From Nitrospirae bacterium CG2_30_70_394 (GTDB taxonomy: Bacteria; CG2-30-53-67; CG2-30-70-394), in NCBI GenBank assembly GCA_001873295.1, contig MNYW01000026.1:1-47205 (forward strand): a stretch of 47,205 nt of DNA, in the 5' to 3' direction. The notes under the pieces are model-generated. The model searched no databases and was not told the DNA's origin. It saw nothing but the letters and a program-made list of their open reading frames with translations. This document shows, piece after piece, positions 559 to 23,665 of this stretch. Numbering within the stretch: the first letter of the stretch is position 1; each line of letters starts with the position of its first letter. Made by a program: the position numbers and the translations under genes.

Positions 559-701
559 CACCCGCGCCTCCTCCCCGCGCCTCTGTGGCTCTGTGCGAGC
601 CCGCCTTCAGGGCCCGCGCCTCGCCCGATCGCCGCGCCCGCGACCCCCCCCTTGGCCGGTCGCTCGGGTTGTGCACCTTGGCCGCCGCCGCCTCTCCCTC
701 C

Positions 702-2051
702 ATGATCCGCGCACCCCCCATCGCCATGGCGCCGCCGCCCACCCTCCTCACGGTTACCGAGTTCACCCGCCTCTTGCAGGAGGTGGTCGAGGAGCGCTTT
801 TCCGAGGTGTGGGTGGGGGGCGAGGTGTCGTCGCTCCGGCGGGTCGCCTCGGGCCACACCTACTTCACGGTGAAGGACGCGGGCGCGGCCCTGGCCTGCG
901 CATTGTTTCGCTACCAGCAGAAATACCAGCGGTTCGAGCTCGCCGAGGGGGAGGCGGTGGCCCTGAAGGGCAGGGTCTCCGTCTACCCGCCGCGCGGCAC
1001 CTATCAACTGGTCGTCGACTACTTCGAGCCCCTTGGTGGCGGCGCCCTGGCTGCCGCCTTTGATGCCCTCAAACGCAAGCTGGAACAAGAGGGGCTCTTT
1101 GACCCGGGGCGCAAGCAACCCCTGCCGCTCTTGCCCCGGCGGGTGGGGATCGTTACCTCGCCCACCGGCGCGGTGATCCGCGACATCATCCAAGTCGCCA
1201 CCGCCCGCTTCCCGAACTGCCAGCTTTTGTTAGCGCCGGTGCGCGTGCAGGGGGCGGAGGCGGCGGCGGAGATTGCCGCCGCGATCGCGCGGCTCGACCG
1301 GCGCGGTGACTGCGACGTGCTCATCGTCGGCCGCGGTGGCGGCTCGATGGAGGACCTGTGGCCGTTCAACGAGGAGGTGGTGGTGCGGGCGGTGGCGGCG
1401 GCTACCACCCCGATTATCTCGGCGGTGGGCCACGAGACCGACTTCACCCTCTGCGACTTCGCCGCCGACGTGCGCGCCGCAACCCCATCGAACGCCGCCG
1501 AGCTCGCCTTCCCGGTGAAGGCGGAGTTGCTCACCCTCCTGGCGCAGCGCAGCCGCAGCCTCGACCTCGCCCTGCGCCGCCGCCTCGACTACCTCGCCCA
1601 GCGGCTCGACACCGCCGGTCGCATCCTTGGCCAGCAACGGCGCCGCTTCCGCGACCAGCGCGAGCACATCGCCCGCCAGCGGTTCGATCTCGCCGCCGCC
1701 ACCGTCGCCGGGATCGGCCGCCGGCGCGAGGAGCTTGGGCGGCTCGCCACCCGCCTCGAACGGCACTCACCGCGCGCCCGCCTTGCCTCCCACCAGGCGC
1801 GCCTTGCTGGCGGCGCTTCCCGCCTCGTCCACGCCGGCGCCACCCTCACCACCCCGCACCACCACGCCCTTCGCCGCCTCGCCGAGACCCTCGACGCGGT
1901 CTCGCCCCTGGCGGTTTTCAGGCGTGGCTATTGCATCGCCACCCGTCCGGGAGAGGCCGCGCCCCTCACCCGGAGCGCCGACCTCGCCCCCGGCGACCCG
2001 GTCGAGCTGCGCCTCGCCGAGGGGAGGGCCGTGTTGCGGGTGGAGGGCTAG
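702..2051 (+). CDS. xseA: Exodeoxyribonuclease VII large subunit
   Basis: Motifs seen: OB-fold N-terminus (TVTEFTRLLQEVVEERFSEVWVGGEVSSL...HTYFTVKD), catalytic core (VGIVTSPTGAVIRDI, LIVGRGGGSMEDLWPFNEE, ISAVGHETDFTLCDFAADVRAATPS), and a long coiled-coil C-terminus. The ORF is open from 585, but 585-701 is intergenic repeat. An ATG at 702 or 723 is the likely start. Confidence 0.9.
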   Translation: MIRAPPIAMAPPPTLLTVTEFTRLLQEVVEERFSEVWVGGEVSSLRRVASGHTYFTVKDAGAALACALFRYQQKYQRFELAEGEAVALKGRVSVYPPRGTYQLVVDYFEPLGGGALAAAFDALKRKLEQEGLFDPGRKQPLPLLPRRVGIVTSPTGAVIRDIIQVATARFPNCQLLLAPVRVQGAEAAAEIAAAIARLDRRGDCDVLIVGRGGGSMEDLWPFNEEVVVRAVAAATTPIISAVGHETDFTLCDFAADVRAATPSNAAELAFPVKAELLTLLAQRSRSLDLALRRRLDYLAQRLDTAGRILGQQRRRFRDQREHIARQRFDLAAATVAGIGRRREELGRLATRLERHSPRARLASHQARLAGGASRLVHAGATLTTPHHHALRRLAETLDAVSPLAVFRRGYCIATRPGEAAPLTRSADLAPGDPVELRLAEGRAVLRVEG

Positions 2052-2195
2052 CGGCCTGTCGGACTGGGTCCCGATCGACCGCGGTAGGGGGAGCCATGGG
2101 CGGACCCGTGGGCCGTGCTTCGGAGGCCGAGCCCCACGTGGCGCTCCGAACGGATCCGACCGACTCGTAGACCGCTTAGCGCCGAACGGCCGTGG
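2052..2195. repeat. Partial or diverged copy of MITE-like element family B
   Basis: The 5' block gcctgtcggactgggtcccgatcgacc matches gcctgttggacctggtcccgatcaacg at 9640-9666. The rest has diverged. Confidence 0.4.
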
Positions 2196-2282
2196 GGGTT
2201 GGAGACAGCGCGGCGCACCTCGCCCGGCAGGTGCATCCCCCGGACCGACTCGGCGGAGGAGGCGGGCGCTTCACCCCGGTGT

Positions 2283-2560
2283 GGAGCCTCTGCGCGAGCC
2301 CGCCTTCAAGGCCGCGACCCAAGCCCGATTGGGGCGCCCGCGACCTTCCCGTTCGTTCCCCCCGCGCCTCCCCCCCGCGCCTCTGCGCCGCTGCGCGAGC
2401 CGGCCTTCCTGGCCGCGACCCAGGCGGCGGTTCGTCCGCGCCACCCACCCCTTCCTATTTCCTACTGCGTTGAGTCGTCTCCTCCCCTTCCCGATTCGCG
2501 CCCATTCGCGTTCATCCGCGGTCCCCTCTACAAACCCTCTTCCGCACCAGGATTGGATTG
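2283..2560. repeat. GC-rich modular intergenic repeat, family A (modules Y-Y-X)
   Basis: Module Y (ccgcgcctctgcgccgctgcgcgagccggccttcctggccgcgaccc...) occurs twice here. Module X (cgcgccacccaccccttcc...cccgattcgcgcccattcgcgttcatccgcggtcccctctacaa) occurs once. Related copies lie at 560-650, 16320-16580 (reverse), 19100-19245 and 45975-46023 (reverse). Confidence 0.65.
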
Positions 2561-2719
2561 GAGGTCCGGGGGTGCCATTGCAACGGGTCGAAGGGGTGCG
2601 CCATAACGAAGTTGGAATCCCAATGGCCGCGCCGCGACCGTGGAGCAAGGATCGTGACCGGGGTGGCCACGTCGGTGGCGCGCCCTATAGTTTTCACCTT
2701 ACGAAGGAAGGGAGAGACG

Positions 2720-3325
2720 GTGACTGGCGAGCGGATCCTGTGGATGGTGATCGGGCTGTGGCTTTCCATGGCGGGTGGGTGGATTCACGCGGAGGCGGAT
2801 GAGAAGGGCGGGATCCAGCCGCCTTCCGGGCAGGTCGAGGGGATCGACCCGCAGGCGCAGAAGATCATCGACCAGCAGATGAAAGGCTTGCAGGAGCGCG
2901 AGGCGGCGACCTTTCCGTGCAGCCTCTTTCCGCAGGCGGAGATCGATGCGCTGGTAGGCAATCCGCTAGACAAGGGGAGTTACGCCTTCAACCACCGGGT
3001 TGAGGACGATCGCCAGTACAAGAGCGAGTCTTGCGACTGGTCGGTGGTGGGCGGCGAAGGCAATGAAGTCGGCCTCTGGGTGAGCCTGCCGCGCCACTTC
3101 GCTTCCGGCCAGGTGGAATGCTCGCCCGGCAGTACCAACCGGAAGATCACCGGCATCGGCGATCAGGCGTGGTGGGAGTACCAGAAGTACTTCGGCATGG
3201 GCACCCTGCGGGTCTGTTCCGCGACCGCGATGGTGGAGGTGAAGGTCACCGTAGAGAATCGGGACGAGGCGAAGGCCAAGAAGATCGCCCAGACGATGGC
3301 GGAACGGGCCCTAGCGTCGCGGTGA
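2720..3325 (+). CDS. Hypothetical secreted protein (about 200 aa), function unknown
   Basis: GTG at 2720 is preceded by ggaagggagag (RBS-like). The N-terminus VTGERILWMVIGLWLSMAGGWIHA looks like a signal peptide. The region upstream from 2558 is repeat sequence. No family motif was recognised. Confidence 0.5.
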   Translation: MTGERILWMVIGLWLSMAGGWIHAEADEKGGIQPPSGQVEGIDPQAQKIIDQQMKGLQEREAATFPCSLFPQAEIDALVGNPLDKGSYAFNHRVEDDRQYKSESCDWSVVGGEGNEVGLWVSLPRHFASGQVECSPGSTNRKITGIGDQAWWEYQKYFGMGTLRVCSATAMVEVKVTVENRDEAKAKKIAQTMAERALASR

Positions 3326-3410
3326 TTCAACGAGCCCCTGGCCTCCGACCTCCACGCGAATGGCGGCTGGAGGGGGCGCCTCCATCCTCGACGCGCCCAA
3401 ATCCGCAGGC

Positions 3411-3515
3411 GGCGGATCGCGCGATGGCGGGTCGGTCGCCACGCACACGGTTCCGCCCTTGCACATTGCCAGGCGCCAAGGTGGCGGATCGCGCGATGGC
3501 GGGTCGGTCACCACG
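3411..3515. repeat. Pair of 33-bp direct repeats (3411-3443 and 3483-3515), 72-bp period
   Basis: ggcggatcgcgcgatggcgggtcggtcGccacg versus ggcggatcgcgcgatggcgggtcggtcAccacg, one mismatch. The pair is intergenic. Confidence 0.7.
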
Positions 3516-3640
3516 GTCAGGGTGGGCGTCGCCACGGGCCGGTGGGGCAAGGGTATGGATTGCGAGACGCCTACCGCTTGAAGGAGCACAAGATCCGCTC
3601 CGCCCAGGGGGTGGGGATTGGCTGATGGGAGAGGGCGATC

Positions 3641-4336
3641 ATGCACGCACACTACCTGCAACACGTCCCCTTCGAGGGGCTGGGGGCCATCGGCTGGTGG
3701 CTGGAGGCGGCCGCGGCAGAGGTCACGCGGAGCGCCCTCTACGCGGCAGAGCCCCTGCCGGACGTGGCCGGGCTCGACCTGCTCGTGGCCCTGGGCGGAC
3801 CGATGAGCGTGAACGACGAGGCGGCCTTTCCATGGCTGGTGGAGGAGAAGCGGTACCTTCGCCAGGCGATCGACCGGGGGATCCCGGTGCTCGGGGTGTG
3901 CCTCGGGGCGCAGCTCATCGCGAGCGCCATGGGGGCGCGGGTCTATCCCAACAGAGAGAAGGAGATCGGCTGGTTTCCGGTGACCGCGGTGGAGCCGGTG
4001 GATGGGTCGAGCTTTCGCTTTCCCACCGCCATCGAGGTCTTTCACTGGCACGGGGAGACCTTCACCCTGCCCGCCGGCGCCGTCCACCTGGCGCGCAGCG
4101 CCGGGTGCGCGCACCAGGCCTTCCAACTCGGCGGATCGGCGATCGGTCTGCAATTCCATCTGGAGACCACCCCGGCGAGCGCCCGCGCCCTCGTCGATCA
4201 CTGCCGCGGGGAGCTGCTACCCGGCCGGTTCGTGCAGAGCGAGGCCCAACTCCTCGTCCCACCGGCCGGGCGGTATGCGGCCATTTACGCCCTGCTGGGT
4301 GAGCTCCTCGCCTATCTGGTGGGGGCGGCGCGGTAG
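3641..4336 (+). CDS. Class I (type 1) glutamine amidotransferase-like protein
   Basis: ATG follows gggagaggg. Motifs seen: the nucleophile elbow PVLGVCLGAQLIA, then FHWHGETF. Length is 231 aa, typical of stand-alone GATase1 proteins. Confidence 0.75.
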   Translation: MHAHYLQHVPFEGLGAIGWWLEAAAAEVTRSALYAAEPLPDVAGLDLLVALGGPMSVNDEAAFPWLVEEKRYLRQAIDRGIPVLGVCLGAQLIASAMGARVYPNREKEIGWFPVTAVEPVDGSSFRFPTAIEVFHWHGETFTLPAGAVHLARSAGCAHQAFQLGGSAIGLQFHLETTPASARALVDHCRGELLPGRFVQSEAQLLVPPAGRYAAIYALLGELLAYLVGAAR

Positions 4337-4476
4337 GGGCAGCGCCGTCTGGGCGGGGGTCGAACCCCTTGGGCAACCGGCCCGAATCGCCTTACCGTCG
4401 AACCCATCCATTCCCTGCCGCCTCCGGTTGGGTCGCGCCATGTTCCGGCCAGGGGCAACCGACAGGAACCACGCCC

Positions 4477-5103
4477 ATGCCCATCAACCATCGGGTCCGC
4501 GAAGGCGAGACGGTTGCCTCGATCGCCGCCCCCCACGGGCTGGCGCCGGAGACGGTATGGGACGATCCGGCCAACGCGCAGCTCAAGGCGCAGCGCGGCG
4601 ATCCCAACATCCTTGCCCCCGGCGACGTGGTGGTCGTCCCGGACAAACGGGCGAAGGAGGAGAGTGGCGCGACCGAGCAGCGCCATCGCTTCCGCACCCA
4701 TCGTTCGACGGTGACCCTGCGCCTCGTCCTCCACGACGCGGGCAACAAGCCGGTGGCCAATGCGGCATGCACCCTGGTGGTGGGGGAGCGCTCCTTCGAC
4801 CTGACGAGCGACGGCGACGGCCAGATCGAGCAGCGGGTCCCGGCCGGCGAGCAGGACGGGAAGCTCCTGGTGGGGGAGCAGCTCCTGCCTATGAAGATTG
4901 GCCACCTGGACCCGCTCGACGTGCACGCGGGCCAGCGCGAGCGGCTCAACAATCTCGGCTATCGCGCGGGCCAGGGGGATGACCCGGACGCGCCGGCCTA
5001 CCGCTCGGCGGTGGAGGAGTTTCAGTGCGACTACGACCTCGGGGTGAACGGTGTGTGTGGCCTTGAGACGCAGAACAAACTGAAGGAAGTCCACGGATGT
5101 TGA
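4477..5103 (+). CDS. LysM domain + beta-sandwich (CarboxypepD_reg-like) + PG_binding_1 domain protein
   Basis: ATG at 4477 follows aggaac. The LysM domain starts at the N-terminus (HRVREGETVASIAAPHGLAPETVWDDPANAQLKAQRGDPNILAPGDVVVVP). The C-terminus RLNNLGYRAG...YRSAVEEFQCDYDLGVNGVCGLETQNKL fits PG_binding_1. No signal peptide is evident. Confidence 0.75.
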   Translation: MPINHRVREGETVASIAAPHGLAPETVWDDPANAQLKAQRGDPNILAPGDVVVVPDKRAKEESGATEQRHRFRTHRSTVTLRLVLHDAGNKPVANAACTLVVGERSFDLTSDGDGQIEQRVPAGEQDGKLLVGEQLLPMKIGHLDPLDVHAGQRERLNNLGYRAGQGDDPDAPAYRSAVEEFQCDYDLGVNGVCGLETQNKLKEVHGC

Positions 5104-6575
5104 CGCGGGTTGGGGCGGGGATCGCGATGGGGTGGGGGGGGGCCTTGGGGAAAATCGTCACCTCTGTTGGCGGACCTCGGCCCGTCGCGGGGGGTGGGTT
5201 TCGACCCGTTCGCGAAGCCGGCGCGTGGCTCGCGCCCCCTTCCGTATCCGGGGCGCGTCCACCACGAATGGCGTGTCCGGGGAGGTTGCCGGTCGTGAGC
5301 CCCCGTCCCACCCACAGCGCGACCCCGGGCGGCGCGGCGTCCAGCCACCCCCTCGGGGACGTGGACGCCCGGTGCGTGGCGACGACTACTGCAGACGGCC
5401 GCAATACGATCGCCGAGCCCCTCGTGCCGGTGGCGTCGTGGCGCATGGATGACCTCCGCTTTCAGTTCGACTCCTCCTTCATCCGGCCCGAGGCGGCCGA
5501 CGAGTTCACCCTCCTCGCGGTCCTGGCCAAGGAGCACCCCAAGGCGCCCATCACCCTGTTCGGCCACGCCGATCCGGTGGGGGACGACGCCTACAACAAG
5601 AGGCTCAGCGGCCGGCGCGCGATCGCGGTCTACGCCGTGCTCACCCGCGACCCGGCCTTGTGGGAGGAGCTCTACTCTCACCCCCACGGCCGCGACGCTT
5701 GGGGGACGCGCACCCTCCAGCTCATCCTCGAAGATCGGGGCCACTCTCCGGGACCGATCGACGGCATCGCGGGAGAGCAGACCCGGGTGGCGATCAAGGC
5801 CTTCCAGCGGGAGAACGGCCTCACCGAGGACGGGGTCGCCACCCCCCTCACCCGCGCGAAGCTGTTCCGCGCCTACATGGATGGCCTTTGCCGCGACGCG
5901 GCGGGCGAGCCCTTCGTTTTGGAGAAGGCGGACTTTCTCGGCCAGGGGGGGGATGGCGACAGGCGCGGGGATGTCCAGGGGTGCGGCGAGTTCAACCCGG
6001 TGCGCCTGTTTTCCCAGGCCGAGCATCAACGGCTCCAGCAGCCGGCGAACCGCGCCGAGCGCGACCGCGAGAACGCCCCCAACCGCCGGGTGGTGGCGCT
6101 GCTCTTCCGGCCCGGCACCGTCGTCCCCCTAGCCAAGTGGCCGTGTCCCGCCGCCACCGCCGGCGACTCCAAGTGCCGCAAGCGGTTCTGGTCGGATGGT
6201 CCAACCCGGCGCACCTTTCAGGAGCAGCGCCGGGAGTACCCCCAGACCCGCGACACCTTCGCCTGCCGGTTCTATGACCGGATCGCCGGGGAGTCCCTGA
6301 TCGAGATCCACGCGGGCGGGCAGGGCAAGTTGTTCATGGAGATCCGCGACGCCCTCGGGGTGGAGCCCCTCGCCGGCCGTGGCTATCGCATCACCCCCCT
6401 CGGTGCAGCGGCGGCGATGTTCGAGGGGAGGCTGGACAACCAGGGGCGGCTGAGCCATGCCGGTGTCCCGTCCGACGACTACCAGCTCGTGGTCGACGGG
6501 GTCGCCGGGGAGCACGCGGCCCTGGTGCTAGATGCGGCGGCGAGCGAGCCGCAGCTCCGCTTTCTGGAGGGATAG
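5097..6575 (+). CDS. OmpA-like peptidoglycan-binding protein with an inserted PG_binding_1 module and a C-terminal extension
   Basis: ATG at 5097 has the RBS gaaggaag 6-7 nt upstream and overlaps the upstream stop (5101-5103). OmpA_C motifs: FQFDSSFIRPEA, LFGHADPVGDDAYNKRLSGRRA, and later NRRVVALLF. The PG_binding_1 module is LQLILEDRGHSPGPIDGIAGEQTRVAIKAFQRENGLTEDGV. The first 115 or so residues are G/P-rich low complexity, so an alternative start at ATG 5445 is possible. Confidence 0.7.
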   Translation: MLTRVGAGIAMGWGGALGKIVTSVGGPRPVAGGGFRPVREAGAWLAPPSVSGARPPRMACPGRLPVVSPRPTHSATPGGAASSHPLGDVDARCVATTTADGRNTIAEPLVPVASWRMDDLRFQFDSSFIRPEAADEFTLLAVLAKEHPKAPITLFGHADPVGDDAYNKRLSGRRAIAVYAVLTRDPALWEELYSHPHGRDAWGTRTLQLILEDRGHSPGPIDGIAGEQTRVAIKAFQRENGLTEDGVATPLTRAKLFRAYMDGLCRDAAGEPFVLEKADFLGQGGDGDRRGDVQGCGEFNPVRLFSQAEHQRLQQPANRAERDRENAPNRRVVALLFRPGTVVPLAKWPCPAATAGDSKCRKRFWSDGPTRRTFQEQRREYPQTRDTFACRFYDRIAGESLIEIHAGGQGKLFMEIRDALGVEPLAGRGYRITPLGAAAAMFEGRLDNQGRLSHAGVPSDDYQLVVDGVAGEHAALVLDAAASEPQLRFLEG

Positions 6576-6578
6576 GCC

Positions 6579-7859
6579 GTGGCCATCCGCGTCTTGTTGC
6601 AACCCGCGACCGTGCGGGTGACCCCCGGCGGGGGTAGCGCCGCCTACACGGTGGTGACCGGCGTCACGATCAGCCTCACCTCCCGGGGACGGGGTGCGGC
6701 GCCGGTGCAGGCGACGCCCACCCCGGCCTCCCTGGAGTTCTACGAGCTGCCGGTCCAGGGCGACACGGCGCGCACGGCGCGGCTCCTCGGCACCCTGGCG
6801 GGTGCGATCCGCCTCGACGGGACCGATTTCAAGTTTGCCGGCGGCGCGCCGCCGCTCATCCAGTTCGCCCCCCTGGTGGATGAGACGGACTTCTTCGTCC
6901 CTCTCACCTACGACCGGACCAACTTCGAGAACGTGACGGATCAGCATCTGTGGCTGCCGTGGGAGAGCGTCGCCGAGCGGGGCCGCCTGGAGCTGGGGGT
7001 GAAGCTGCGGATTGACTCCGCTGTCCACGCCGACCTCGCCAACAACGACACCCTCGACGTCTCCCTCGTCCACCGCGGGGTGCCCGATGACGGTACGGAC
7101 ACGGCGCAGCGCTTCGATTGCCAGGGCATCACCGAGGTCTACCCGACGGGCAACCACAACCTTACGACTGCCCAGCGCATCCCGATCTCTTCCGACCCTT
7201 TGCGCATCCGCGTCCACGACAGCGTGCGCGACGCCTGCAACGCGGTACACGCGGGCTCCTTCAACCTTGCCCAACTCACCACCCACCTGACCACCATCTT
7301 TCGCGACGCCGGGTTCGCCACCGTCGACGTGCAACTGAAGAGCGACGCGGACGCCACCGCCGCGTGGTGGCAGCAACGCTCCGGCCGGTTCATCGCCAAG
7401 AACGTCGCCGATCCCCGGCATGCCAGCGACCTCGATGGGCAGGAGCTGCCGTTCTTCGAGTTCTGGGCCTTCAGCCAGACGAGCCTGTTCGCCAACGGCG
7501 AGGCGGCTGAGTCTGAGGCCCTCAACCCGGGCCACGAGATCAACGTCTCCGCCCGGACCAAGCGGGTGATCGCGCCGATCGCGGTGCTGGGCAGGCAGGC
7601 GAAGTTCGACGACACCTACCAGCAGATCCTCCAGCCGGCGACGCGCATGCAGTTCCTCGCCAGCCTGCTGGCCCACGAGATTGGCCACACCCTCGGCCTG
7701 CCGCACGCCCTGCACTTCAACGCCCGCAGCCAGTCGTACTCGCAGCTCGGCGGCGACATCATCGGGACCATGGGCTTGTTCAGGGTCGACGGCGGCCGCG
7801 GCCGGGTGCAGAAGTTCGGCCCGGTCCACAAGGCGACCCTCCGCCGCCACTTCCTGTAG
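6579..7859 (+). CDS. Hypothetical protein with a C-terminal metzincin-type zinc-protease motif
   Basis: GTG at 6579 lies 7 nt after ggaggg and 3 nt after the upstream stop. The motif LLAHEIGHTLGLPHA (HExxHxxGxxH, 7674-7706) is followed by a possible Met-turn, IIGTMGL. The 360 or so N-terminal residues match nothing I recognise. No signal peptide is evident. Confidence 0.65.
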   Translation: MAIRVLLQPATVRVTPGGGSAAYTVVTGVTISLTSRGRGAAPVQATPTPASLEFYELPVQGDTARTARLLGTLAGAIRLDGTDFKFAGGAPPLIQFAPLVDETDFFVPLTYDRTNFENVTDQHLWLPWESVAERGRLELGVKLRIDSAVHADLANNDTLDVSLVHRGVPDDGTDTAQRFDCQGITEVYPTGNHNLTTAQRIPISSDPLRIRVHDSVRDACNAVHAGSFNLAQLTTHLTTIFRDAGFATVDVQLKSDADATAAWWQQRSGRFIAKNVADPRHASDLDGQELPFFEFWAFSQTSLFANGEAAESEALNPGHEINVSARTKRVIAPIAVLGRQAKFDDTYQQILQPATRMQFLASLLAHEIGHTLGLPHALHFNARSQSYSQLGGDIIGTMGLFRVDGGRGRVQKFGPVHKATLRRHFL

Positions 7860-7997
7860 GCGAATCGGGCGTACCGGCAATCCGTGGCGGCGGGTGGTGG
7901 CGCATGGCGCTGAGTCCAGCAGCGCCTAGGCGGACTCAATGGTGTCGGCCTTCCCCGCAGAGCTTTCGGGGCGGTTCGGGTGCGGCGCCGGGTGCGC

Positions 7998-9563
7998 TCA
8001 GGGCGCTGAGCCCAGCAGCGCCAGGGCCGACTCGATACCGTCGGCGGCGGAGGAGATGATGCCGCCGGCGTAACCCGCCCCCTCGCCTATCGGGTAGAGG
8101 CCGAGGTGAGAGGCGGACTGGCGATCAGGACGCCGGACCATGGTCAGCGGGCACGAGGTGCGCGACTCCACGCCATAAAGCAGCGCCGGCGGGTCGAGGA
8201 AGGTGGGGGCGATCCGGCCGAACCGGTCGAGCCCCTGGCGCAGCGCTGAAGTCAGCGGCCGCGGCAAAAGGGTGGTGAGGCGCGCCCCCGCCACCCCCGG
8301 GCGATAGCTCGCTGCGGGAATCGGCGGGTTGGCGCGGCCGAGAAAGGCGGCGACGGTCTGCACCGGGGCGCGGTAGTCGCTGCCGCCGAGGCGAAAGGCG
8401 AGGCGCTCCAACCCCTCTTGGAAGTGCATCCCGGCCAGGACCCCGCCACCCGGAAGATCCGCGGGAACGACCCCGACCACCACGCCGCTGTTGGCAAAGC
8501 CGGTGGCGCGGCGGCGCGGGCTCATCCCGTTCACTACCCCTTGTCCCGCCGCCGAGCCGGAGGCGACTACCTCGCCACCCGGGCACATGCAGAAGGTGTA
8601 GACCGCGCGGCCGTCGTGGGTGTGGTGGACGAAGCGGTAGCGCGCTGGCTCCAGGCCGCGGCCGGCGTCGGCGCCGTACTGGATCCGGTCGATCACCGCC
8701 TGCGGATGCTCGATGCGCAGGCCGACGGCGAACGGTTTGGCCGCCATCGCCACCCCTTGGCCATGGAGGGCGGCGAAGGTGTCGCGGGCGCCGTTACCCA
8801 GGGCGAGGAAGAGGGCGGCGGTGTCGATCGTCCCCGCGCTCGTCGCGACTCCCGTGATCCGCCCGTCGCGCACCACCAGGCGGGTCATGCGCGTGGCGAA
8901 GAGGAAGCGGCAGCCGAGTCCCGACAGAAAGCGGCGGATGCGCACCACCACCGCCCGCAACCGGTCGGTTCCCACGTGCGGGTGGCCGTCGATCAGGATG
9001 TCAGCCGGCGCCCCAAAGCCGACCAGCTCCTGCTTGATCCACTCCACCAACGAATCATCGCGCGACGCGCTCAGCTTGCCGTCGGAGAAGGTACCCGCGC
9101 CGCCCTCGCCGAACTGGATGTTGTTCTCCGGGTCGAAGCTGCCATCCCGGTGAAAGGCGCGCACCGCCTTCACCCGTTGCTCCACCGGCTGGCCGCGCTC
9201 GATCACGATCGGTGGATTGCCCGAGCGCGCCAGGATCAGGGCGGCGAACAGCCCCGCCGGGCCGCTGCCCACCACCACCGGCGGCTGGGCGAGGCGGCGC
9301 GCCGGGATGACCGGCGGCGGCGCCGGCGGCCCCAGGGGGACCACGGTGGGGTGGGGCGAGCGGCTGACCGGTGCCTCCACCGCCACCGTGTAGACCCGAT
9401 GCACCCCGCGGCGCGTATCGAGGGAGCGCCGCCGGATGACCACCTCGCCGAGCTCGCTCTCGCGCACCCCGAGGCGGCCGGCGACCGCCGCGCGCAGCTC
9501 CGCCTCCCCCGCCTCCGGGCCGATACACACCTCCCGCACCAGCCAATGCCGTATCTCAAACAC
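7998..9563 (-). CDS. FAD-dependent oxidoreductase (COG2509-type uncharacterised FAD protein)
   Basis: Motifs seen: dinucleotide fold VVVGSGPAGLFAALILARSG, then IQFGEGGAGTFSDGKL, and a C-terminal GEGAGYAGGI motif. The start is GTG at 9563. Confidence 0.85.
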   Translation of the reverse strand: MFEIRHWLVREVCIGPEAGEAELRAAVAGRLGVRESELGEVVIRRRSLDTRRGVHRVYTVAVEAPVSRSPHPTVVPLGPPAPPPVIPARRLAQPPVVVGSGPAGLFAALILARSGNPPIVIERGQPVEQRVKAVRAFHRDGSFDPENNIQFGEGGAGTFSDGKLSASRDDSLVEWIKQELVGFGAPADILIDGHPHVGTDRLRAVVVRIRRFLSGLGCRFLFATRMTRLVVRDGRITGVATSAGTIDTAALFLALGNGARDTFAALHGQGVAMAAKPFAVGLRIEHPQAVIDRIQYGADAGRGLEPARYRFVHHTHDGRAVYTFCMCPGGEVVASGSAAGQGVVNGMSPRRRATGFANSGVVVGVVPADLPGGGVLAGMHFQEGLERLAFRLGGSDYRAPVQTVAAFLGRANPPIPAASYRPGVAGARLTTLLPRPLTSALRQGLDRFGRIAPTFLDPPALLYGVESRTSCPLTMVRRPDRQSASHLGLYPIGEGAGYAGGIISSAADGIESALALLGSAP

Positions 9564-21739: not shown

Positions 21740-23665
21740 ATGCCATGGATCGCCATGTGTAGCCGCGCATTGTCGACGGGTCCGCTACCCCTCGTGTTGC
21801 GCATCGCTCGTCTATTCGTGGTTGGTTGTTTGGCGCTACCTCCTTTGCATGCCCAGGCGAGCAGCCTGGAAATACCCCTGCGCATACCCCTGGAGCCAAT
21901 CCGCCAAGCCCTTAGCGCGCAGCTTGCGACGTCGGCTGAGACCCCGAATGTGATCTACGAGGAGGGTTCATGTAGTTACCTGCACCTCGAGGCCCCGCGC
22001 CTCGAGGCCCATGACGGGCAGTTGCGTTTTGTCGGCCCTGGCGCAGCGGCGTTGGGTGGTGAGCTGTTCGGCACCTGTCACAGCGCCACCGCCTGGCAGG
22101 GCTCCATGGAATTCACCCTCGTACCGCTACTCGACAGCACGGGTGGCATGCACCTGCGGATTATCGATTCCAAACTCACCGACGCCAGCGGAGAGAGCGC
22201 GCCGAGGTTGGGTTTCATCTGGGAGTTGACCAAACGCTACCTCCATCCACGCATGGAACAGTTCAGCTATGACGTTGGTACATCGCGCGACGCCCTGCTC
22301 GCGGTTCTACGCGCGGCGGCCCCACCGGAACACCGCGCCGAGCTGGAACAGGCTCTACGTCGAGTGCAGGTGCTGGAACCACGCATCGAGGCCCGGGACA
22401 TCGTGGTGCCGATCACCTTTGTTTTACCGGAAGCTTGGTTGGCGCCACCACCAGCGGCGACCTCGGCGGAAGCACCTCTGACCGAAACCGAACTCGATGT
22501 CTTGGACAAGACACTGCAGCCATGGGATGCATTCCTGGTCTACAGCATCAAACAGATTGCGCTCGACAGCGACAATGAAATACTACGAAAACGTCTTTTT
22601 GAGTTGCTGCTGAACAGCCGGTATCGCTTGACAGATATTCTCTCCGGTGAGCAACCGACCGCCGGCGATCCGGTCCGTGCCCTGTTCGTGTCGACCTGGA
22701 ACGATCTGCGGACGCTCCTCGCCGATGCCCAACATGAAGGCTTGCTCGATACTGGGCTGCTGCGCTATGCCGCCTTCATTAATGCCGGTGATGCCTTGAC
22801 GGCCCTGGACCACGCGGCGCCCGGGCTTGGCATGCACCTTTCCATTGATGGGCTGCGACGTTTGGCGCACAGCCTGCGTCCGGATGATCTCGCGGATTCG
22901 CTTGCCTACGATCAGAAGATCGATCCACTCCTACGCCAACTATTCGACGTCGACGAACTACCTGTACCCGCGCCTAACCCCGCGCCCGAGCCGCCCCCAC
23001 CGCCGGAACAGAGCTGGCTGGATATCTTTGTGACCTCAGCCCATGCCTCGGATACGGTCGAGCAGGTTGCAGGCCTACCGGCGCTGGACCGCTGGGTACC
23101 CGGAGAGGACGAACTCGATGCGTATGAGCAGCGGTTGTCATCCTTGTTGGAGCAGAGCGCAACGGCGGAGTTGCAGCGTATCGGGGTCGACGCACCCTAC
23201 GATCAGATTTTCCGAAACCTGATACCGACCACGGCGATGATTGAGAGTTGCTGGCATCAGTATGTGCTTCGTGCCGGCGAGATTAGCTATCTGCGCTCCC
23301 AGGCCGGCAGTGTTGGCCTCATGCAGATCAACCAGCATGTTTGGCGCGGCTTTTATGATGTTGAACGCCTAAAGTGGGATACCGCCTACAATGCCCGTGC
23401 GGGTACGCAGGTCCTGATGCGCTACATGAAGGACTACGCCATCGCCTACGCTAACCGCAGCGGCGATCTCAATCATATTCCGCGCGCCACCTATTCGGTG
23501 TATAATGCGGGCCCGCGTGCTATGGGTCGTTTTAATAATCCGAATAGCTCCAAACGTGAACAACGCGTCGATCAGAAGCTCTGGACCATCTATCAAGGTA
23601 TCGCGGCGGGTGGCCACGTGGACGTGAACAGTTGCAGCGTCACGCCCGCCGCGGTGACGCAGTGA
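21740..23665 (+). CDS. Secreted protein with a C-terminal lytic transglycosylase (SLT) domain and a roughly 480-aa N-terminal region of unknown function
   Basis: The N-terminus is signal-like (LVLRIARLFVVGCLALPPLHAQA). The C-terminal SLT motifs are IESCWHQY (catalytic Glu-Ser), GSVGLMQIN, AGTQVLMRY and YSVYNAGP. The gene has clearly lower G+C than its flanks. Confidence 0.75.
   Translation: MPWIAMCSRALSTGPLPLVLRIARLFVVGCLALPPLHAQASSLEIPLRIPLEPIRQALSAQLATSAETPNVIYEEGSCSYLHLEAPRLEAHDGQLRFVGPGAAALGGELFGTCHSATAWQGSMEFTLVPLLDSTGGMHLRIIDSKLTDASGESAPRLGFIWELTKRYLHPRMEQFSYDVGTSRDALLAVLRAAAPPEHRAELEQALRRVQVLEPRIEARDIVVPITFVLPEAWLAPPPAATSAEAPLTETELDVLDKTLQPWDAFLVYSIKQIALDSDNEILRKRLFELLLNSRYRLTDILSGEQPTAGDPVRALFVSTWNDLRTLLADAQHEGLLDTGLLRYAAFINAGDALTALDHAAPGLGMHLSIDGLRRLAHSLRPDDLADSLAYDQKIDPLLRQLFDVDELPVPAPNPAPEPPPPPEQSWLDIFVTSAHASDTVEQVAGLPALDRWVPGEDELDAYEQRLSSLLEQSATAELQRIGVDAPYDQIFRNLIPTTAMIESCWHQYVLRAGEISYLRSQAGSVGLMQINQHVWRGFYDVERLKWDTAYNARAGTQVLMRYMKDYAIAYANRSGDLNHIPRATYSVYNAGPRAMGRFNNPNSSKREQRVDQKLWTIYQGIAAGGHVDVNSCSVTPAAVTQ

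Follow-up and report, generated by a model that had tools for sequence, protein, structure and literature searches.

Where would a predicted protease act if the two proteins encoded beside it are built from peptidoglycan-binding modules and none of the three has a recognizable route out of the cell? The question is raised by three genes, here called genes 1, 2 and 3, in the window (the whole 47,205-nucleotide stretch of DNA that was analysed), which comes from a groundwater bacterium. An initial annotation described the trio as a translationally coupled module, could name no described system of such composition, and left it between a cell-wall protease and an antagonism effector set. The co-directional arrangement that it reported is borne out by the sequence and by a strong third-position GC signal in the frames of all three genes. 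The features discussed are collected in Table 1.

Table 1. Coordinates of features in and around the three-gene locus, as positions in the window.
Feature	Position	Strand	Description
Insertion, 5.9 kb	2052..7997	.	Between convergent xseA and FAD-dependent gene
Gene 1	4477..5103	+	208 aa, leaderless; LysM-like stretch (residues 5-55), central beta-rich stretch, PG_binding_1 (155-202)
Spacer, 191 nt	5104..5294	+	Unconserved; alignment with L002 has indels of >100 nt and loses identity
Shine-Dalgarno GGGGAGG, gene 2	5279..5285	+	DNA conservation with L002 resumes here
Gene 2	5295..6575	+	426 aa, leaderless; OmpA-like with nested PG_binding_1, Cys-containing linker, C-terminal transthyretin/CarboxypepD_reg-like sandwich
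OmpA halves of gene 2	~5457-5648 and ~5982-6113	+	Alignment A5
PG_binding_1 insert in OmpA-like fold	5709..5864	+	Gene 2 residues 139-190; Pfam
Gene 2 C-terminal beta-sandwich	6324..6569	+	Residues 344-425; putative cargo-specific domain
Shine-Dalgarno GGAGGG, gene 3	6566..6571	+	Within gene 2 end; read from sequence
Gene 3	6579..7859	+	426 aa, leaderless; predicted Ig-like sandwich 1-165 (6579-7073) and metzincin catalytic domain ~200-426 (7176-7856)
Zinc site HEIGHTLGLPH	7674..7706	+	Gene 3 residues 366-376 (H366, E367, H370, G373, H376)
Met-turn candidate M398	7770-7772	+	Conserved Met after zinc motif
Degenerate 50-nt copy (80%) of FAD-dependent gene 3' end (7996-8045)	7900..7949	.	Insertion right edge; repeat search

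The coupling of the three genes had been proposed in part from a 7-nt overlap of genes 1 and 2 at 5097-5103. This overlap exists only in the longest open reading frame of gene 2, which starts at ATG 5097 and traverses a region where the third-position GC signal is weak (5100-5250). In two relatives, protein conservation begins at the residue encoded by GTG 5295, and most public gene calls give a protein of 426 aa. DNA conservation with an 80-85% relative (L002) is lost past the gene 1 stop and comes back exactly at the Shine-Dalgarno sequence GGGGAGG. The most likely start of gene 2 is GTG 5295 rather than ATG 5097. Because conservation and coding signal place the start there, leaving the 191-nt spacer, genes 1 and 2 do not appear to be translationally coupled, and tight coupling is most likely limited to genes 2 and 3. 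At that second junction the 3-nt gap first reported (6576-6578) stands, between the gene 2 stop TAG 6573-6575 and the gene 3 start GTG 6579, with both genes in the same frame. In distant relatives the same two genes overlap by 4 nt.

Gene 1 had been read as beginning with a LysM domain and ending in PG_binding_1. The C-terminal PG_binding_1 is secure in Pfam (32 bits against a cutoff of 23), whereas the LysM match (PF01476) is sub-threshold, at 17.1 bits against a gathering cutoff of 20.9 (E 0.0056), although it spans the whole profile (positions 1-43); precomputed LysM matches among homologues are only "faint". Full-length homologues, aligned from residue 1 at 37-48% identity, were found in L017, L018, L019, L045, L046, G010 and G013. 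For gene 2, both OmpA_C-like and PG_binding_1 assignments hold (41 bits in the first half and 57 bits, respectively, in Pfam), and a PDB profile search matched OprF, OmpA and Pal, down to E 8e-17. Both OmpA halves are conserved in the alignment of homologues, the second (GCGEFNP...NRRV, including the C-terminal NRRV strand) continuing past the PG_binding_1 insert, and the insert is itself missing from several homologues. Gene 2 has at least 995 homologues in many phyla; approximately 45 of the best 120 matches align only to about residue 337, and therefore have a different C-terminal domain there.

The HEIGHTLGLPH motif of gene 3 is confirmed, but it is not the only recognizable feature of the protein, as had been stated. 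The AlphaFold and Foldseek analyses that the initial annotation proposed were carried out, and an AF2 model built from 43 sequences (pLDDT 94.4, pTM 0.92) contains an N-terminal Ig-like sandwich and a whole metzincin domain. The five residues of HExxHxxGxxH (H, E, H, G, H) are invariant across 43 family members, so that the motif loss that would have argued against a protease is not seen, and M398 recurs in at least 90% of alignment A4 (17 members) and is invariant in alignment A1. In a VIA-align comparison the model superimposes on archaemetzincin 2x7m with Z 9.0 and an rmsd of 3.4 over 153 residues. Zinc metalloproteases fill ranks 1-32, and almost every one belongs to a recognized metzincin family; archaemetzincins, adamalysins, MMPs, snapalysin, fragilysin, ulilysin and serralysin align over residues 200-426. 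Foldseek matches the model to ADAM10/17, and in the PDB profile search the family profile matches serralysins (E 3e-6). Gene 3 thus shares with the metzincin clan (2x7m, serralysins, adamalysins/ADAMs, MMPs) the zinc motif, the later Met, and the fold. It nevertheless falls below the gathering score of every Pfam or NCBIfam metzincin family compared, including Pfam M10, Reprolysin and DUF4953 and NCBIfam serralysin, with matches that span the motif region only (Peptidase_M10 is best, at 20.5 bits against 24). In the gene 3 family the third His is followed by Ala or Gly, unlike in classical metzincin families. The family is rare, with 86 clusters among 1.84 billion representatives. Gene 3 is, by its model, a predicted complete zinc metzincin of a new, rare family.

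None of the three proteins, nor any of 12 homologues from five other loci, has a stretch resembling a signal peptide or a transmembrane segment in a hydrophobicity scan, a crude check, in which the best 19-residue Kyte-Doolittle mean for the three proteins is at most 1.3. This agrees with the earlier view that the trio lacks Sec and lipoprotein signals. The initial annotation had added that LysM proteins lacking a leader typify phage-tail, eCIS or T6SS assemblies.

Genes 1 and 2 have homologues that are widely found together as a leaderless pair, and the third gene behind them varies. The pair stays 37-52% identical across loci, and the third genes encode unrelated proteins of 301-641 aa. Direct adjacency to vgrG or PAAR genes occurs at four independent loci (L017, G010, G013 and L045). 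In a same-genus genome (G010, 100% complete), TssB-TssC-Hcp-TssE-TssF-ClpV-VgrG are encoded on one contig, and vgrG is directly followed by a full-length gene 1 homologue (39.5% identity) and then by the gene for a 550-aa HExxH protein, with a 208-aa sandwich protein and an 851-aa gene 2 homologue encoded farther downstream. The order in G013 is VgrG, gene 1 homologue (48%), 172-aa protein, and 377-aa HExxH protein; these two vgrG-linked loci lie on contigs G010:C70 and G013:C2. A soil contig (L045) encodes, in order, VgrG, a 128-aa protein, a gene 1-like protein, a 751-aa protein, PAAR, gene 1-like and gene 2-like proteins, a gene 3 family member (E 2.7e-128), and another gene 2-like protein. 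A Zixibacteria contig (L017) carries ClpV-like and VgrG genes, repeated gene 1-like/gene 2-like units each with a variable gene, and DUF4280; its gene 1 homologues adjoin VgrG, ClpV and a PAAR-like gene. No T6SS gene was seen within 10 kb of the pair at L018, L019, L001 and L004. Among 14 genomes of the phylum, which are related and not independent as a count, TssC occurs only in G010, G012 and G013, and homologues of genes 1 and 2 occur only in these three and the host genome (G000). G012 has both an orthologous trio (80-85% identity) and a T6SS with TssC, as many as six gene 1-like copies are present in G013, and gene 3 occurs in two of the four genomes that bear genes 1 and 2. We regard gene 1 as a putative VgrG-docking helper or co-effector.

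Variation in the C-terminal sandwich of gene 2 tracks the metzincin. Wherever a gene 2 homologue bears an EPQxRFL tail, a member of the gene 3 family comes after it; other homologues have other partners. A prediction made from the alignment held: two further homologues with the same tail were each followed by a gene 3-family gene. The sandwich is also 46% identical to a stand-alone 108-aa protein encoded just upstream of the metzincin in a distant relative (L001). Co-conservation, which the initial annotation had named as a check, is thus found for genes 2 and 3 in relatives.

The insertion that holds the trio also contains genes for a secreted 201-aa protein and a GATase-like protein, the former showing no consistent partnership with gene 3 across compared loci. 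Gene 3 ends 138 nt from the convergent FAD-dependent gene. In G010 about 10 nt separate the stops of xseA and the FAD-dependent gene, a single contig matches window positions 667-2042 and 8002-8602 with nothing between (blastn), and the trio is absent from this site in the same-genus genomes G010 and G011. Values of dN/dS are 0.20 for gene 1 (against L016), 0.20 for gene 2, and 0.44-0.48 for gene 3. As first observed for sheath and spike genes, no VgrG, TssC or sheath gene was found in the window, nor in the draft genome as a whole. Searches of the draft host genome with Pfam models, and by tblastn with G010 proteins, found no TssB, TssC, Hcp, TssE, TssF or VgrG. The draft is 94% complete, in 182 contigs, and measures 2.65 Mb versus 3.1 Mb for G010; it is possible that a T6SS cluster of about 40 kb was missed. 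The trio here is an orphan cassette, set apart from T6SS clusters. After gene 3 there is no immunity gene in the window, nor in L016, L004, L045 or L046. In the distant clade of L001 and L003, a lipoprotein-type gene follows the metzincin gene, placed as periplasmic immunity genes are.

We conclude that the trio is probably a VgrG/PAAR-linked T6SS effector cassette carried in the insertion. Between the two possibilities first left open, the linkage to vgrG and PAAR genes in relatives favors antagonism. Genes 2 and 3 would be translated together and gene 1 apart, as the sequence indicates, and the leaderless proteins would assemble in the producer cytoplasm. There the transthyretin-like sandwich of gene 2 may hold the metzincin, as we infer from their co-variation and from the gene split in the distant relative. 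The LysM-like head of gene 1 would dock the complex onto the VgrG spike, a step suggested by gene 1 homologues directly following vgrG and by experiments with different stand-alone LysM proteins (PMC10673891). Firing would then put the complex into the periplasm of a neighbor, where the LysM, the two PG_binding_1 domains and the OmpA-like domain would grip the sacculus and the metzincin, by analogy with Tpe1 and VgrG2b, would cut a putative envelope substrate. Peptidoglycan-binding modules without export signals make sense on this account because the action would be in the target periplasm and not in that of the producer.

Genes 1 and 2 could also constitute an undescribed, self-sufficient, T6SS-independent route for placing leaderless enzymes on peptidoglycan, with the vgrG-linked copies as one use. 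Such a route would fit because no T6SS genes were found in the host draft and planctomycete-type loci have no T6SS nearby, but we consider it unlikely. Likelier, and quite possible although we hold it tentatively, is that these pairs are widespread, undescribed co-effectors for T6SS cargo loading, with the C-terminal sandwich determining which cargo is taken; they would then serve as a marker for new effectors outside the proteobacteria.

That genes 1 and 2 instead fix the metzincin to the peptidoglycan of the producer itself, as a tethered protease or remodelling module that would serve turnover of the wall or processing of proteins and be deployed by non-Sec export or lysis, seems quite unlikely. 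The lack of signal peptides and membrane anchors in the proteins and their homologues argues against it, a polymorphic third gene and tandem cassettes are ill-suited to housekeeping, the cassette is missing at this site in G010 and G011, and the direct vgrG/PAAR adjacency recurs at four independent loci. These weigh against the presence of four peptidoglycan-binding modules beside a protease, the host draft without T6SS genes found, and the loci of the pair without a T6SS gene within 10 kb, all of which this explanation would accommodate.

TagL-type proteins anchor the T6SS to peptidoglycan, and TagX opens the sacculus in Acinetobacter. Genes 1 and 2 might likewise anchor the apparatus while the peptidase opens the producer sacculus, and in relatives the genes are indeed located within T6SS clusters or next to them; OmpA-like and PG_binding domains serve as T6SS anchors, as is also stated in PMC3482391. 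We judge such an accessory or biogenesis role very unlikely, given that no transmembrane segment or signal peptide is present for reaching the producer periplasm, gene 1-like copies number up to six in G013, the partner gene varies and the cassettes come in tandem, and gene 3 accompanies the pair in only two of the four genomes of the phylum that bear it. An origin as a phage lysis module, or as eCIS cargo, is extremely improbable. It is suggested by PHROGs endolysin matches through PG_binding_1 and by leaderless LysM proteins of eCIS and phage baseplates (PMC10673891), but those PHROGs matches extend no further than the binding domain, and gene 3 has no counterpart among the phage families. 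Searches of window and genome turned up no gene of a phage, a sheath or an eCIS, and the machines beside relatives are canonical T6SS (TssB/C, Hcp, ClpV).

The effector-cassette reading has precedents in described systems. One is the loading of effectors with the help of stand-alone LysM and PG_binding_1 proteins encoded in vgrG loci, such as Kalk_10460 (Commun Biol 2023, PMC10673891). Those LysM proteins are leaderless and encoded directly after vgrG and before the toxin, the position that gene 1 homologues occupy in G010, G013, L017 and L045, and the study also gives PG_binding_1 as a vgrG-locus domain family. The likeness is one of position and domains: gene 1 differs in uniting a LysM-like head, a beta-rich center and PG_binding_1 in one 208-aa protein, gene 2 is a second conserved paired helper that the study does not describe, and PG_binding_1 is there confined to gamma-proteobacteria, whereas the pair occurs in many other phyla. 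Tpe1-Tpi1 of A. baylyi and the C-terminal domain of P. aeruginosa VgrG2b provide VgrG-linked HExxH zinc peptidases that act in the target periplasm and are neutralized by a periplasmic or lipoprotein immunity protein (PMC6899460). Gene 3 resembles them as an HExxH zinc peptidase, and its relatives in L001 and L003 are followed by the lipoprotein-type gene. It differs in its extended motif HExxHxxGxxH with a Met-turn, its N-terminal Ig-like domain, its separation from VgrG (unlike VgrG2b), and, in the clade of the window, its lack of an adjacent immunity gene; the PDB profile search gave no sequence match to VgrG2b. Polymorphic and PVC-delivered toxins, which are leaderless and injected, carry Tox-OmpA, PGB1 and LysM modules whose proposed ligands are the peptidoglycan of the target cell or precursors of it (Zhang et al. 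2012, PMC3482391). In those toxins OmpA is the extreme C-terminal toxin domain of a long protein; gene 2, a separate 426-aa protein, instead has it as an N-terminal core in which PG_binding_1 is nested, and ends in a putative cargo-specific tail. LysM/PG_binding_1 helpers and T6SS metallopeptidase effectors are, then, already described, contrary to the first impression of a composition without precedent.

MIX, FIX and RIX domains mark effectors in proteobacteria. If the effector-cassette reading is true, the conserved handle formed by genes 1 and 2 (one protein with LysM and PG_binding_1, the other with OmpA, PG_binding_1 and a cargo-specific tail) would mark T6SS cargo in little-studied phyla such as Zixibacteria, Planctomycetota, Acidobacteriota, Gemmatimonadota and this small candidate phylum and could be used in the same way. 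The short list of T6SS peptidase effectors would gain a new, rare metzincin family whose fold model is confident. An apparently system-less trio is explained here through comparison with relatives, and it offers a case of peptidoglycan-binding modules probably meant for the wall of the victim.

Reading frames were chosen by third-position GC, because long spurious open reading frames are frequent at the G+C content of the window (about 70%). The initial annotation had placed the start of gene 2 at an ATG at 5097, giving a 7-nt overlap with gene 1; four lines of evidence favor a GTG at 5295 instead. The third-position coding signal is weak across 5100-5250. In a DNA alignment to L002, the locus of a close relative (80-85% identical), identity is lost past the gene 1 stop codon, with indels of more than 100 nt, and conservation returns exactly at the GGGGAGG of 5279-5285, 9 nt upstream of the GTG. 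The protein is conserved from the GTG residue onward in both L002 and another relative, L016, and public records of the identical protein most often give it 426 aa. Gene 2 therefore encodes 426 residues and is separated from gene 1 by a 191-nt spacer. The junction between gene 2 and gene 3 stands as first described, with a TAG stop, 3 nt, a GTG start, and a GGAGGG within the end of gene 2; distant relatives have a 4-nt overlap here. A search for promoter-like sites found none, and the sole terminator-like match, at the gene 2/gene 3 junction, does not go beyond chance expectation.

Features of the window and of related genomes; G010 (same genus as the window) and G013 belong to the same phylum, and C numbers are contigs
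Feature	Location	Strand	Remarks
xseA	585-2051		upstream of the trio
near-tandem repeat	2286-2324/2387-2425		39 nt, 87%
201-aa protein with signal peptide	2720-3325		upstream of the trio
near-tandem repeat	3407-3451/3479-3523		45 nt, 89%
class-I glutamine amidotransferase-like gene	3641-4336		upstream of the trio
gene 1	4477-5103	+	third-position GC
gene 2	5295-6575	+	GTG start, 426 aa
gene 3	6579-7859	+	third-position GC
FAD-dependent protein	7998-9563		downstream, convergent to the trio
T6SS cluster loci	G010:C70:5000-45000 (L042, L043); G013:C2 (L044)		
550-aa VgrG-linked protein with AHEFGHILNLPH	G010:C70:22930-24582 (L042:17931-19583)	-	matches no Pfam family

In gene 1, residues 5-55 match LysM over its full length but below threshold (17.1 bits vs 20.9), and residues 155-202 form a PG_binding_1 domain. 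In gene 2, a nested PG_binding_1 domain, missing from some homologues, splits the OmpA-like domain into two flanking halves; after these come a linker with a Cys and, at the C-terminus, a CarboxypepD_reg/transthyretin-like sandwich. No signal-peptide-like or transmembrane stretch occurs in the three proteins, and the same is true of 12 homologues. In a comparison with PHROGs, endolysin matches ran through PG_binding_1 only and gene 3 matched nothing. Membership in a known defence system was rejected, as PADLOC returned just weak ZorB/MotB matches through the OmpA part.

Gene 3 gives only below-threshold matches to metzincin families. When 1.84 billion representatives were searched by profile, 86 relatives came up; the family is rare, with 8 close proteins. 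An AlphaFold2 model based on an alignment of 43 relatives has a pLDDT of 94.4 and a pTM of 0.92; a model from 8 sequences (pLDDT 46.6) was discarded. Residues 1-165 are modeled as an Ig-like sandwich, while residues from about 200 to 426 align to archaemetzincin (Z = 9.0) and also to adamalysins, MMPs, snapalysin, fragilysin, ulilysin, and serralysin. H366, E367, H370, G373, and H376 are invariant (43/43 sequences), M398 is nearly so, and the family profile matches serralysins (E = 3e-6). Cyanobacterial proteins from a genome-contig search were set aside, as they share with gene 3 only the HExxH (zinc-peptidase motif) stretch, 358-419. Another assembly has a 492-aa variant (P0005 / P0240), identical to about residue 420 and then in a different frame, that probably represents a 1-nt indel or assembly error near the 3' end.

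Homologues of gene 2 number at least 995 and occur across many phyla. The contigs with such homologues share one recurring unit, in which a gene 1 homologue of 210-230 aa and then a gene 2 homologue of 420-540 aa precede a variable third gene. Within these units the gene 1 homologues are 37-48% identical over their full length and start at residue 1, and those of gene 2 show 44-52% identity over the part up to about residue 337; the third genes are related neither to gene 3 nor to one another. The idea that the variable third genes of loci L017-L019 share the N-terminal domain of gene 3 was rejected, as these genes had no HMM match. That domain recurs elsewhere, in proteins fused to OmpA/PG_binding_1.

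Comparison of gene 2 sequences suggests that the C-terminal sandwich tracks cargo identity. It is common to the homologues at L004, L016, and L002, and in each a gene 3 relative is the next gene. At L001, from a distant gene 3 clade, a stand-alone 108-aa protein encoded directly upstream of the metzincin is 46% identical to the sandwich. This pattern served as a prediction, and it held for two further gene 2 homologues with the same EPQxRFL tail: the genes after P0106 and P0107 both belong to the gene 3 family (E = 2.7e-128 and 1.6e-103). Genome G012 of the same phylum has an orthologous trio at 80-85% identity with quite different flanks. The distant gene 3 locus at L001:11500-15182 adjoins a TraG/VirD4-type coupling protein and a relaxase; the L001 cassette is carried on a conjugative element. 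An AbiEii/HTH pair and an AAA_15/AAA_21 ATPase adjoin the relatives' gene 2-gene 3 pairs (L004:5337-6385, L002:5174-6286), whose surroundings are variable and island-like.

Several relatives lie beside type VI secretion system (T6SS) genes. On a Zixibacteria contig (L017), genes for a ClpV-like ATPase and VgrG are followed by gene 1/gene 2 units and then by a DUF4280 (PAAR-like) gene. A soil contig (L045) encodes, in order, VgrG, a 128-aa protein, a gene 1-like protein, a 751-aa protein, PAAR, a gene 1-like protein, a gene 2-like protein, a gene 3 family member, and another gene 2-like protein. Among 14 genomes of the window's phylum, TssC occurs in three (G010, G012, and G013), all in the window's family, and homologues of gene 1 and gene 2 occur only in these three and in G000, the draft genome containing the window; this co-occurrence is no more than suggestive, since the genomes are related. 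Within this small candidate phylum, a complete canonical T6SS cluster was seen in three of five genomes of that family and in none of the nine of the other family. Contig C70 of G010 carries TssB, TssC, Hcp, TssE, TssF, ClpV, and VgrG. Directly downstream of vgrG are genes for a gene 1 homologue, the 550-aa protein with AHEFGHILNLPH, a sandwich protein of 208 aa, and a gene 2 homologue of 851 aa. The 550-aa protein is a candidate second zinc-peptidase cargo, unrelated to gene 3; an ORF with a lipoprotein-like leader comes after its gene. The layout in G013 is similar: VgrG, a gene 1-like protein, a 172-aa protein, and a 377-aa HExxH protein. Searches of G000 with Pfam models, and by tblastn with the G010 proteins, found no T6SS core genes; with 94% completeness and a draft that falls 0.45 Mb short of G010, the absence may reflect either loss or a gap.

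No immunity gene adjoins gene 3 in this clade. The 201-aa protein, which has a clear signal peptide, matches no Pfam family, and has homologues in G012 (76%) and G006 (54%), gained no support as an immunity candidate: it occurs in G006 without gene 3, and no gene 3 locus outside G000 and G012 has a copy. A 220-aa ORF after gene 3 in L002 and L016 lacks a homologue in G000 and appears doubtful as a gene call. At L001 and at L003, of the same distant clade, the metzincin gene is followed by genes for homologous proteins with lipoprotein-type leaders, which fits a periplasmic target.

The distance from the xseA stop to the FAD gene stop is about 10 nt in G010 vs 5,946 nt (2052-7997) in G000, and the trio and the gene for the 201-aa protein lie in this insertion. 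A 50-nt direct repeat (80%) pairs the right edge of the insertion (7900-7949) with the 3' end of the FAD gene (7996-8045), and the degenerate copy at 7900-7949 looks as it might after integration into the 3' end of a gene. The 5.9-kb insertion contains no integrase. Two of its stretches, 2052-2720 and 3326-3640, are long, non-coding, and contain near-tandem repeats. Elsewhere in the window, 21740-23665 has lower G+C (about 60%) and contains a 641-aa ORF. Between lineages dN/dS is 0.20 for gene 1, 0.20 for gene 2, and 0.44-0.48 for gene 3, values that indicate purifying selection on all three; gene 3 is the fastest evolving, and fast evolution is frequent among cargo genes. The DNA is present in many groundwater and aquifer metagenomes. 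Short contigs from four aquifer metatranscriptome libraries match gene 1, the spacer, and gene 2 perfectly, and one matches at the 3' end of gene 3; given a depth of 2-5 and possible DNA carry-over, these do not prove expression.

LysM proteins in vgrG loci, stand-alone or fused, are required for effector-VgrG binding, and PG_binding_1 is one of six such vgrG-locus domain families (PMC10673891). VgrG2b C-ter and Tpe1 are T6SS metallopeptidases that act in the periplasm, with periplasmic or lipoprotein immunity proteins (PMC6899460), and injected toxins with OmpA, PGB1, and LysM modules have been described (PMC3482391). We consider it likely that the trio is a T6SS effector cassette of the VgrG/PAAR type that stands as an orphan in the G000 draft. 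Such cassettes are already known as a kind; what is new here is a conserved handle, made up of two helpers and bearing a cargo-specific tail, together with a new metzincin family.
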